From the IMG/VR virus record IMGVR_UViG_3300031857_000025: DNA of 64,000 nt; one strand, 5' to 3'. Shown here one piece after another: positions 4,721 through 55,867 of this stretch (position 1 is its first letter; the number at the start of each line of letters is the position of its first letter). A program made the position numbers and the translations under genes. Under the pieces are notes generated by a model. The model saw only the letters and a list, made by a program, of their open reading frames with translations, ran no database searches and had not been told where the DNA came from. This DNA is from a virus.

Positions 4721-4753
4721 ACCTATTCTATTGGATCAAAATTTAAGGATAAT

Positions 4754-5143
4754 ATGAAAGATTTAAAAGAAAAACTTAGAAATTTAATTTCAGAAGAAAT
4801 TGCCAGTGTCATGATGGAAGCCTCAGGAAGAGCTGGTGGATTGCTTAATCCTAAAGATTTTGATCCAGTAGATCCTGAGGTTCATATTACCGGATATGGT
4901 ACTATGAGCAGATCGGCATTACGTGAAGAAATTGCACGTAGATTGGAAATGCTAACTAAATCAGCAAAAGAAGCAGCTGCTGCAGAAACGTCATATGCTA
5001 ACTATGAATCCATGTTACCATTGTTAACAGAGAAAGGAATGATAGCATCATTGATTCGTGCTGAGCTAGCTGTTGCTGATGAAATGGAAGCTATACGTAC
5101 ACAAGGTGGTAGAAGAACTACACCTATCCCAAAACAAAAATAA
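4754..5143 (+). CDS. hypothetical, putative internal head protein
   Basis: LRNLISEEIASVMME leader. Confidence 0.6.
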   Translation: MKDLKEKLRNLISEEIASVMMEASGRAGGLLNPKDFDPVDPEVHITGYGTMSRSALREEIARRLEMLTKSAKEAAAAETSYANYESMLPLLTEKGMIASLIRAELAVADEMEAIRTQGGRRTTPIPKQK

Positions 5144-6782: not shown

Positions 6783-7055
6783 ATGAGTATTAACAACAGA
6801 TTCGCAGTAGATCAAAACAAAACAAAACGTTATGGACAGTACTACGGAGGTATTGACTTTGAAGTAAATGAGGCTGTATCAGCAAAGGTATTTGCAAATA
6901 ATCCTAGTAAGCCGCCAGTAGGAGAGTTTATTATTGGTAACCGTAATTTTGAAGTTACTATCGATGAACTTGAACTTATCGAGCAGACAGCTAAGGATGC
7001 ACGCGAAACAATCATGAAACGTTACCGTCTTGGTTTGATGGGTCATCTGAGCTAA
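6783..7055 (+). CDS. hypothetical protein
   Basis: 90 aa ORF in operon context. Confidence 0.6.
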   Translation: MSINNRFAVDQNKTKRYGQYYGGIDFEVNEAVSAKVFANNPSKPPVGEFIIGNRNFEVTIDELELIEQTAKDARETIMKRYRLGLMGHLS

Positions 7056-7082
7056 TAACGATATTTATTAGAAAGGACCAGT

Positions 7083-7283
7083 ATGGAATTTAGCTCACAA
7101 GAGAAAATGGAAATACGAAAACTTTTAGAGCTGCAAGATTCAGAATCGCGATTAATTAGACTAAAACAGTTTTTAAGTAGTCGCAATTCTGAGCTTAAAG
7201 CTGAGGGGGTTGATTATACCTATTTAGCAACACAAATGGTACGAGAACATGAATCTAAAAGACCTCGTTATACAAGAAAATGA
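7083..7283 (+). CDS. hypothetical protein
   Basis: ATATTTAT 7061-7068 and AAGGA upstream. Confidence 0.6.
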   Translation: MEFSSQEKMEIRKLLELQDSESRLIRLKQFLSSRNSELKAEGVDYTYLATQMVREHESKRPRYTRK

Positions 7284-7662
7284 ATTTGATATTTTCGTTG
7301 CATTAGATCCTTCACAAAAAATTCAATTTGTTTGGGATGCATTGCAAGATGGTATTGAACATGCAGTTGAACGTCAATTACATGATCTTAATTCTGGTAA
7401 TAAAGGTCGTGGGATTGCATTGGTTCAACTACAAGTAATTCGTGTTGGTAATCAAACATTGAATGTAATGACAGTCGGTAACATTGTTATACTTAATTGC
7501 GATAATTTACGTATCATACGTAGATTTGTACGTAATATGTGGAACAATGGTACCGTGTTATTACGTCGTCCTGATATACGTAAAACAAAGTCACAAGACA
7601 TGTTCAAGTATTTTTTAGCATATGAAATAATAGGTTCCGGCCAGATTATTTGCGATAACTAA
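7249..7662 (+). CDS. hypothetical protein
   Basis: 137 aa ORF. Confidence 0.55.
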   Translation: MNLKDLVIQENEFDIFVALDPSQKIQFVWDALQDGIEHAVERQLHDLNSGNKGRGIALVQLQVIRVGNQTLNVMTVGNIVILNCDNLRIIRRFVRNMWNNGTVLLRRPDIRKTKSQDMFKYFLAYEIIGSGQIICDN

Positions 7663-7675
7663 TATATTATAGAAA

Positions 7676-8166
7676 TTAATGATACTATGGGTCAGTAATT
7701 TTTTTAATTAATAACATAAACCATCTTAGGAGGTAAACATGAGTACATTTGAACACTTTGATCTTTTGGTCAGAAACTTTTTTGATTCAACTGCTGAATT
7801 TAGATCCGCATTTGATTCTAAAATACAATATCCAGTAGACATTTATGAAACAGCATCTGGTATTGTTTTTGAAATAGCAGCTGTAGGAGCTGATAAAGAA
7901 GATATCGCTATATCAACCCAAGGCGATGTTTTAAGAGTTACATATAATAAAGAAATAGCCAGATCTGGCAATTATATTAAGCAATCTATTGCCAAACGTA
8001 ACTTCGATTTAGGGTGGAGATTATCATCTAAATTTGACTTAGGTAAAATTGAGGCTAAATTAGAGAAAGGATTACTGCATTTAGAAATTCCTTATATATC
8101 TAAAGCAACACCTAAAACAATTGAAATTAAGTAATAAGTTATAGTAACTGACCCGTAGATCATTAA
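7676..8166 (+). repeat. inverted repeat flanking hsp20 (arms 7676-7696 and 8147-8166)
   Basis: TTAATGATACTATGGGTCAGT pairs with ACTGACCCGTAGATCATTAA with one bulged A and one U-G wobble. Confidence 0.85.
7739..8134 (+). CDS. small heat shock protein, Hsp20/alpha-crystallin family
   Basis: YPVDIYE...FEIAAVGADKEDI...IAKRNF...IEAKLEKGLLHLEIP...PKTIEIK; AGGAGG SD. Confidence 0.92.
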   Translation: MSTFEHFDLLVRNFFDSTAEFRSAFDSKIQYPVDIYETASGIVFEIAAVGADKEDIAISTQGDVLRVTYNKEIARSGNYIKQSIAKRNFDLGWRLSSKFDLGKIEAKLEKGLLHLEIPYISKATPKTIEIK

Positions 8167-8207
8167 CTTTTACTTGATATCCGAACAAATAACCCCCATT
8201 TTACAGT

Positions 8208-8417
8208 ATGAATTTAATAGTATTCCAGGATAAATTATACTACGTTAAACGAACGGTATTAGAGTCAAAATTAAGACCCGATTTTAATAATGATACGTTC
8301 CGTCAATGGACTAGAACAGATATAATATTACGTAAAGATGGTATTATATATGCATGTGAATTAATTGCAGATGCTGTTATTGAATCAGAAACTTCCGAAA
8401 ACTTTTTTGGTGAATAA
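8208..8417 (+). CDS. hypothetical protein
   Basis: 69 aa ORF. Confidence 0.55.
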   Translation: MNLIVFQDKLYYVKRTVLESKLRPDFNNDTFRQWTRTDIILRKDGIIYACELIADAVIESETSENFFGE

Positions 8418-8449
8418 TTTGGATTCGTACATCAATGTACTTATCTTTA
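8418..8449 (+). promoter_or_regulatory. Bacteroidota-type sigma70 promoter
   Basis: TTTG 8418-8421, 20 nt spacer, TATCTTTA 8442-8449. Confidence 0.65.
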
Positions 8450-8467
8450 AGATCTAAATTAAAATAT

Positions 8468-9526
8468 ATGAATAATAATGTTAGGTTAGGTTATGCATGT
8501 GTCAATCAGACCTTGACTAATCGACCAAAAAAATTAGGTGGCCGTGTTACTACGAGTCGTACCTTACGCAAAGCTTCTTGGCATAGTAATTTTGATCTGC
8601 ATAAGATTGGTGAGCTAGCTGTACAGAATGCTAAGGATTTACTTACTTATCTTAAGTGGAACGAAGAGCATGGTATTCGTTTGTTTCGTGTAGGTTCTGA
8701 GCTTGTTCCATGGCATGATCATTTTGAGCTACACGACTTGCCTCAGTATGACTTATTGTCTATGCATCTTAAGTTAGCTGGTGATTATGCTAAGGCCCAT
8801 GGGCATCGATTGACTACTCATCCTGGTCCATTTCATATCTTAGGTGCGCATGATGATGAGATTGTACGTAGAAGTATTATTGGTCTTGAGCGTCATTCTG
8901 AATTATTTGACCTTATGGGCTTTGAGCCTTCATATGAGAACAAGATCAATATTCATATCGGTGCTGCTTACAAAGATCCTGAGACTACTGCATATCGTTG
9001 GCTTAAGAATTATGACCGGTTATCTGATAACTGTAAAGCTCGATTAGTAGTAGAGAATGACGATAAGGACTCTTTATATAGCGTTCAGATGTTACATGAT
9101 CTTATCTATCGTAACGTCCAAGTACCTATTACCTTTGATTATTATCATCATAAGTTTCATACTAGTGGTTTATCCGAGCAAGAAGCGCTGGAGTTAGCAG
9201 GTACTACCTGGCCTTCCAATGTACGCCAATGTTGTCATTATAGCGAATCTCGTCGACAAGAATATCAACTTATGTTTGATACGATGTGCCGTAACAATAA
9301 CAAGACAATAGAAGAATTAGTTACGTTTCCTACTTTTGCTAAGATGAAAAAAGATTTTGATAAGATCAAAGAGCAGGCACATTCTGATTATATTATACAG
9401 CCAATTCAGACTTATGGGCATAATTTAGATATCATGCTTGAGGCTAAGGCTAAGGAGTTAGCTTTACTTAATTATCAGTATCTACCTGAACTAAATATAT
9501 ATACAAAAGAAAAGGAGTTAATATGA
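8468..9526 (+). CDS. uvsE: UV DNA damage endonuclease
   Basis: RLGYACVN, IRLFRVGSELVP, RLTTHPGPF, INIHIG, RLVVENDDK, FDYYHH, HSDYI, DIMLEAKAKELAL; likely start ATG 8468. Confidence 0.92.
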   Translation: MNNNVRLGYACVNQTLTNRPKKLGGRVTTSRTLRKASWHSNFDLHKIGELAVQNAKDLLTYLKWNEEHGIRLFRVGSELVPWHDHFELHDLPQYDLLSMHLKLAGDYAKAHGHRLTTHPGPFHILGAHDDEIVRRSIIGLERHSELFDLMGFEPSYENKINIHIGAAYKDPETTAYRWLKNYDRLSDNCKARLVVENDDKDSLYSVQMLHDLIYRNVQVPITFDYYHHKFHTSGLSEQEALELAGTTWPSNVRQCCHYSESRRQEYQLMFDTMCRNNNKTIEELVTFPTFAKMKKDFDKIKEQAHSDYIIQPIQTYGHNLDIMLEAKAKELALLNYQYLPELNIYTKEKELI

Positions 9527-55806: not shown

Positions 55807-55835
55807 AAAAGGGAAGCTTCGGTTTCCCTTTTTTT
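55807..55835 (+). terminator. rho-independent terminator after major capsid gene
   Basis: AAAAGGGAAGC-TTCG-GTTTCCCTTTTTTT. Confidence 0.9.
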
Positions 55836-55867
55836 ATGTCTTTATATTTATACAAAAGGTAAAAGTT

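Follow-up and report, generated by a model that had tools for sequence, protein, structure and literature searches.

To our knowledge, bacterial mRNAs whose 5′ end pairs with the 3′ end have been described in only a handful of cases, each of them dissected singly (hbs, icaR and hok). The mRNAs of the hok-family type I toxins fold back from 5′ to 3′ through the fbi and tac elements, and the closed message is translationally inert until its 3′ end is trimmed. A related geometry is found in the RNase III stalks of rRNA, in which sequences flanking the 16S and 23S rRNAs pair and the RNA product is looped out. For stabilisation, the precedent is the hbs mRNA of B. subtilis, a highly expressed message in which pairing of the 5′ and 3′ UTRs alters the access of ribonucleases and so the stability of the transcript (Braun, Durand and Condon 2017, PMC5737220). 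The hbs interaction comprises 14 nt with an energy of −19 kcal/mol and is internal to the 5′ UTR, where it covers an RNase Y site; a normal terminator lies downstream (PMC5737220). In S. aureus icaR, the 3′ UTR pairs with the Shine-Dalgarno (SD) region and blocks translation (PMC3868564).

Here we describe a comparable arrangement around the small heat-shock gene hsp20 in phage DNA from the IMG/VR record IMGVR_UViG_3300031857_000025, analysed as one stretch of 64,000 nucleotides (the window). The G+C content of this DNA is 34%, and the phage baseplate protein is 52% identical to that of Microcystis phage Mel-JY01 and 41% identical to that of Flavobacterium phage vB_FspM_immuto. Large aquatic Bacteroidota phages with HSP20 have been described (PMC12619734). 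Like hbs, the hsp20 unit would carry complementary 5′ and 3′ UTRs on one short mRNA. Unlike the hbs interaction, the hsp20 helix measures 10–31 bp in the loci studied here, starts from the predicted 5′ terminus, is not accompanied by a separate terminator and belongs to a portable phage element; the kind of evidence differs as well, being covariation for hsp20 and mutagenesis for hbs. The helix resembles an rRNA stalk in being formed by sequences immediately flanking a looped-out RNA of several hundred nt, but the hsp20 loop is a translated mRNA and the helix begins at the promoter, not inside a long precursor. As in hok, the 5′ end of the hsp20 mRNA would pair with the 3′ end to give a compact closed message, although the helix leaves out the hsp20 ribosome-binding site (RBS), the gene carried encodes a chaperone and there is no sign of an antisense RNA. 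In contrast to icaR, the hsp20 SD sequence (7729–7733) does not take part in the helix. Our literature search found no description of an hsp20 closing-helix element, which we regard as a variant of 5′/3′ UTR pairing and of processing-stalk-like closure, both already known. The features of the locus are as follows.

7249–7662, + strand: upstream gene encoding 137 aa without a family match; it ends in a stop codon directly before the cassette
7662–7671, + strand: variant late-promoter-like motif, one base off; relatives carry the exact 9-mer ATATTTATA here
7666–7675, + strand: possible outer A/U-rich extension of the helix, pairing with 8167–8177
7676–7696, + strand: 5′ arm of the closing helix, present in all relatives, with the frame AC-NNNN-GG and a co-varying centre
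7720–7734, + strand: small SD-sequestering hairpin, with the SD GGAGG at 7729–7733 and a bulged A7723; present in the centroid fold
7739–8134, + strand: hsp20, the looped-out cargo, encoding a 131-aa small heat-shock protein (Pfam PF00011, E 1.4e-10)
8147–8166, + strand: 3′ arm of the closing helix, beginning 12 nt past the hsp20 stop
8167–8177, + strand: tail after the 3′ arm, a C and four U followed by A/U-rich sequence
8208–8417, + strand: downstream gene, 69 aa, a conserved neighbour; its own promoter motif is absent here

The first-pass annotation of the window had placed hsp20 between two complementary arms with a bulged A and a U-G wobble, and all of these details, arm coordinates included, were verified in the window sequence. 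The 5′ arm (21 nt) pairs with the 3′ arm (20 nt) through 12 bp, the bulged A (7684) and a further 8 bp, giving 20 bp in total with a single U-G wobble and enclosing a loop of 450 nt. The duplex of the strict arms has an energy of −27.2 kcal/mol, which becomes approximately −32 kcal/mol once the A/U-rich outer extension (7666–7675 with 8167–8177) is counted. The upstream strand of this extension may lie ahead of the transcription start, and the tail at 8167–8177 is either an outer extension of the helix or a weak U-tract. The closing helix is kept in both the MFE and the centroid folds of the full 517-nt RNA (z = −2.78). No match was obtained in an Rfam scan of positions 7000–9000 at E values up to 1.

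The arms are the strongest inverted pair up to 1.5 kb apart anywhere in the window. Their complementarity could nevertheless be due to chance, or be what is left of a decaying hairpin that took up hsp20 in its loop, and serve no function today. Of 40 dinucleotide shuffles of the window, seven matched the closing-helix energy somewhere, so that window-internal energy alone cannot exclude chance. Spacers of more than 40 nt account for only about 2.3% of the window, and both arms lie in spacers flanking one gene; this position around a single gene argues against chance, and conservation in relatives argues against it more strongly.

Relatives were collected from IMG/VR viral contigs, 7 by protein, 18 by a 19-nt RBS motif and 80 by protein alignment, and after deduplication 74 distinct loci were left, each with sufficient flank. 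These loci come from uncultured aquatic myoviruses of lakes and oceans, and the Hsp20 identity of the relatives to the window protein is 43–55%. Isolate phage genomes, searched by blastn and tblastn with the region and with Hsp20, gave no match. Comparison of the flanks showed an equivalent helix around the hsp20 unit in every one of the 74 distinct loci, built from arms that differ in sequence and co-vary. The energies of the cognate duplexes range from −19.9 to −43.3 kcal/mol (median near −32), and the means for non-cognate duplexes, in which a 5′ flank was paired with the 3′ flanks of other loci, are −13 to −24 kcal/mol; in this cross-pairing the window arms reach −32.8 with their own partner vs. 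−26.5 with the best foreign one. The arm sequences vary by lineage within a common 5′ frame, AC-NNNN-GG, whose four central bases change with their partners.

From an ordinary MAFFT alignment of the full 540–600-nt regions of 53 one-gene loci (754 columns), RNAalifold, unsupervised, chose the long-range helix as the main consensus structure. In the 11-pair core of this helix, 81.2% of the cells are paired vs. 61.6% in shuffles, and none of 500 shuffles reached the observed value. The first-pass annotation had proposed covariation of the arms in related hsp20 loci as a check, and the arms do co-vary: the covariation score is 0.578, vs. 0.245 for shuffles and 0.10–0.23 when the partner columns are slid by 1–3 positions, and compensatory double changes are seen in nine of the 11 core pairs. 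Since about a dozen alignment rows have a misplaced 3′ arm, the covariation figures are conservative. Contiguous helix cores in the relatives measure 10–20 bp, many of them only 10–16 bp, and 10–31 bp when interruptions are allowed. For these values the helix ends were set by conservative extension, and unrestricted duplex folding was discarded because it over-extends through the A/T-rich flanks.

We also considered the arms as mere local hairpins and rejected this, as local folding of the 5′ arm is no better than that of shuffles (mean z about 0); a local 6–10-bp alternative fold of the arm is present in some lineages. For the hsp20 genes of the cyanomyoviruses S-PM2, S-CAM1 and MA10 (approximately 30% identical), no obvious long-range helix was found. 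These genes have ordinary terminator-like local hairpins and T-runs beside them, and the long-range helix is therefore not general to phage hsp20.

In 14 loci, a gene encoding a DUF2061 membrane protein of 69–79 aa lies between hsp20 and the 3′ arm.

L052, 1890–2126: DUF2061 gene
L065, 1892–2098: DUF2061 gene
12 other loci: DUF2061 gene in the same place

No 3′ arm is found beside hsp20 in these loci. The arm is located at the stop of the second gene, 210–250 nt downstream of the hsp20 stop, the duplexes have energies of −30 to −41 kcal/mol, and the loop of the two-gene units extends to about 700 nt. Near-identical arms occur with and without the DUF2061 gene (L081 vs. L073 and L096). The placement of the 3′ arm after the DUF2061 gene indicates that the arms mark the ends of the unit, not hsp20 as such; across the relatives, the 3′ arm starts about 0–30 nt past the stop codon that ends the unit's last gene.

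The unit occurs in at least 13 upstream and at least six downstream gene-family contexts. Homologues of the window's upstream gene (7249–7662) are located upstream of hsp20 in 25 of 72 loci, and the family of the downstream gene (8208–8417) follows hsp20 in 34 of 61. Relatives that have the upstream gene and lack hsp20 were retrieved with an alignment query, the upstream protein alone having retrieved none. In four such relatives (L109, L116, L117 and L121) both the promoter motif and the two arms are absent, and in three of the four the flanking genes abut or overlap, with 0–10 nt from stop to start. On the basis of the extra-gene, context and empty-site comparisons, the gene, its leader, the promoter motif and both arms are present or absent together as a single block. 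We therefore describe the unit as a portable cassette composed of a late-type promoter, the 5′ arm, a leader with an RBS hairpin, hsp20 with or without the DUF2061 gene, and the 3′ arm. Like the promoter-gene-terminator cassettes known as phage 'morons', it is self-contained and has its own promoter.

The same comparisons bear on the origin of the arms. Insertion of hsp20 into the loop of a pre-existing hairpin was rejected, because the four hsp20-less sites show neither hairpin nor arms. In addition, pairing is kept down to approximately 43% Hsp20 identity with compensatory changes, and the arms shift with the end of the unit when a second gene is present. Chance complementarity or a functionless hairpin remnant is thereby already refuted in practice.

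The closest relative by the upstream protein (L135, 46% identity) lacks hsp20 and the 69-aa gene; its upstream gene is followed by a spacer of approximately 190 nt and then by uvdE, from which it follows that the region is highly variable in gene content.

To assign the helix to a strand, we reverse-complemented each 3′ arm and aligned it with its 5′ arm under a strand-neutral scoring scheme. Transition mismatches corresponding to G-U pairs in the sense RNA numbered 83, vs. 29 corresponding to antisense G-U pairs. The sense fold was the more stable one in 56 of 71 distinct helices, and it was favoured in 60 of 68 under a separate scoring that is biased toward the sense strand. This asymmetry would not be predicted if the arms were DNA-level inverted repeats, whether recombination or inversion sites or the ends of an hsp20 mobile element. 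Such repeats could account for the presence or absence of the unit as a block in many gene contexts and for the partly conserved frame that the arms have in common. The centre of the arms co-varies, though, where conservation would be expected of a protein-binding site; we saw no target-site duplication; and the flanking genes are opposite to hsp20 in none of the 74 loci, none of which is inverted. No recombinase or transposase was found near the element in the window, and the first-pass annotation was right on this point. We consider a DNA repeat highly improbable, and the comparative sequence evidence indicates that the helix is a selected sense-strand RNA structure and not a recombination site.

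An RNA-level helix looping out the whole hsp20 message, as originally put forward, is thus borne out by covariation in 53–74 loci together with the sense-strand G-U bias. Selection at the RNA level had been argued from the bulged A and the wobble in the window. The RNA level itself is upheld by the comparative data, but one wobble in one sequence is no evidence by itself.

The 5′ arm follows closely on a motif that recurs in this phage. In the window, the 9-mer ATATTTATA occurs in 12 copies on the + strand and in none on the − strand (positions include 4269, 13706, 31647, 36278, 41505, 55844, 56680 and 57080), and an A-rich run follows most copies. Nine copies are intergenic, eight of these sitting 13–40 nt before the start codons of structural genes and one sitting 122 nt before a start codon. 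Reverse-complementing the core of the 9-mer gives the T4 late-promoter octamer TATAAATA, and judging from these placements ATATTTATA is likely to act as the late promoter in this group of phages. Ordinary late genes of the phage have very short leaders, and the distance from motif to start codon for hsp20 in the relatives is about 80 nt. Within this leader, the gap from the promoter motif to the first paired base of the 5′ arm is mostly 2–10 nt in the relatives. The position of the 5′ arm only a few bases past the promoter motif makes it probable that the arm forms the very beginning of the hsp20 mRNA. A scan of the region around hsp20 (7000–9000) for sigma-70 promoters and local terminators gave nothing above shuffles and no terminator. 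The downstream gene at 8208–8417 has no promoter motif of its own and is thus probably read through from hsp20.

Temperature-dependent control had been listed among the possible roles of the long helix. This is unlikely: in the thermodynamic model the pairing probability of the closing helix is approximately 1 across 10–65 °C, on which ground we do not regard it as a thermometer. The SD (7729–7733) lies beyond the 5′ arm by 33 nt, outside both arms, and is left unoccluded by the long helix. According to the modelled energies, a better thermosensor candidate is the small, conserved hairpin at 7720–7734, predicted at −7.0 kcal/mol at 10 °C, −3.2 at 37 °C and −0.8 at 55 °C. In the RNAalifold consensus, pair 141/148 of this hairpin is UA in 28 sequences and CG in 22, which makes one co-varying pair, and the 19-nt motif around the hairpin retrieved hsp20 loci only when used as a query.

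As to function, we infer a transcription start at the promoter motif, formation of the helix in vivo and an effect on message stability or termination. Our best explanation, to which we give an even chance, is that the closing helix is an end clamp that protects and delimits the hsp20 message and that acts as a terminator stem where a U-tract follows. The 5′ arm, a few bases past the late-type promoter motif, would be the 5′ end of the mRNA and would pair with the sequence just past the last stop codon of the unit. Such a clamp would bury the 5′ terminus and so protect the message from 5′-end-dependent decay; at the other end it would block 3′ exonucleases and set the 3′ boundary of the message. 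With a U-tract after the helix, the closing helix would in addition serve as the stem of a terminator.

U-tracts in this position are found in 13 loci, in which a run of 5–7 U begins 0–2 nt past the long-range helix. These loci represent at least four helix sequence classes, and the local fold of the 45 nt preceding the U-run is weak (0 to −5.8 kcal/mol). In having a G+C-rich stem followed by 5–7 U within 0–2 nt, the 13 relatives resemble an intrinsic terminator, but the loop is the whole 450–700-nt message vs. 3–8 nt, and a proper U-tract is missing in most loci. The U-run loci are mostly those with groES-groEL downstream, several of them with a promoter-like motif past the U-run, and a proper U-tract is absent from loci whose downstream gene lacks its own promoter motif. 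The window, with a C and four U, belongs to the latter; judged as an intrinsic terminator it falls short, since its U-tract has fewer than five U and its loop is 450 nt long rather than that of a local hairpin.

The organisation of the groES-groEL lineages is illustrated by L012 (2120–4026), in which hsp20, a U-run and a promoter-like motif are followed by groES (Cpn10) and groEL (Cpn60), forming a phage chaperone cluster. The groES-type downstream gene family of L012 is present in 17 loci.

These tracts raise the tentative alternative that the closing helix is a long-range intrinsic terminator, in which the 5′ end of the transcript would pair with the sequence before the U-tract and the polymerase would release an end-locked mRNA. 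If so, a single structure would combine a 5′ stabiliser, a 3′ stabiliser and a terminator, and it would exist in full form in the U-tract lineages and in a weak or leaky form in the window. We regard this as possible but on the whole doubtful. As approximately 60 of the 74 loci have no U-run, termination cannot be the common function of the helix.

Several points also weigh against the end clamp. Closure of a 450–700-nt loop during transcription is kinetically unfavourable, and in the window itself the promoter motif deviates by one base and the U-tract consists of just four U. Furthermore, ordinary local terminators are used elsewhere by the phage, so the advantage of the design is unexplained. 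A textbook example lies immediately upstream of the promoter motif at 55844.

55807–55832: intrinsic terminator with an 11-bp stem, a 4-nt loop and a U-run

Two G's in the middle of the 5′ arm (alignment A2 columns 79–80, window positions 7690–7691) are invariant in the 53 aligned loci, with partners that alternate between C and U. They hint at an added sequence-specific constraint which the clamp model does not explain. Of the other roles considered at the outset, nothing in our analysis points to covalent circularisation of the hsp20 message.

The main rival to the end clamp is RNase III processing. Here the helix would be a processing stalk cut by the host enzyme, by which a monocistronic hsp20 mRNA would be freed from longer late transcripts with short paired stubs left at both of its ends. 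The geometry is that of the rRNA stalks, with pairing flanks and a looped-out product, and the window helix, with 20 bp, one bulge and the extension, is of a suitable substrate length. Read-through transcripts are likely as well, since the cassette sits between genes that abut or overlap in hsp20-less relatives. Yet the contiguous core is just 10–16 bp in many relatives, which is short for RNase III; a phage RNase III is absent from five complete relatives (155–183 kb); and cleavage does not explain the U-tract directly past the helix in 13 loci. Taken together, we judge processing by RNase III to be rather unlikely, though a serious contender.

Another explanation arises from the position of the helix between two genes. 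By looping out the cassette, the helix would bring the stop codon of the upstream gene beside the start codon of the downstream gene and so control translation of the neighbour; in some lineages it would bury the downstream start, and a ribosome finishing hsp20 would melt the 3′ arm. The spacing of 0–10 nt between the flanking genes in three hsp20-less loci suggests translational coupling. In at least six loci, the sole in-frame start codon of the downstream gene, a GTG, is inside the core of the 3′ arm (L037, L066, L095, L088, L070 and L041; 15–17 nt past the hsp20 stop), and at least five further loci have an ATG at the edge of the helix. This suggests that translation of the downstream gene in the GTG-in-arm loci is coupled to hsp20 via melting of the helix. 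Such control is not general: the downstream start in the window (8208) is 42 nt beyond the 3′ arm, the unit in the groES-groEL lineages is bordered by a U-run resembling a terminator and by a new promoter motif, and the helix is retained across the 13 or more upstream contexts. We consider it an improbable account of the helix as a whole.

The known cases of end pairing concern individual messages. Here the closure is a conserved, co-varying and portable part of a cassette for phage gene expression, with examples from more than 70 genomes. Natural controls are built into this collection in the form of an extra gene within the helix, empty sites without the helix and U-tract variants, and the loci thus offer a ready system for testing whether end-to-end pairing stabilises or terminates messages. 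They also suggest a rule by which self-contained gene cassettes could be designed for insertion between coupled genes.

Elsewhere in the window, the second strongest inverted pair forms a helix of approximately 21 bp (4725–4750 with 4847–4872; −32 kcal/mol). It joins the ribosome-binding region of the open reading frame at 4754–5143, whose 129-aa product gave no Pfam match, to the frame's own coding sequence about 95 nt in, and is a candidate translational repressor structure.
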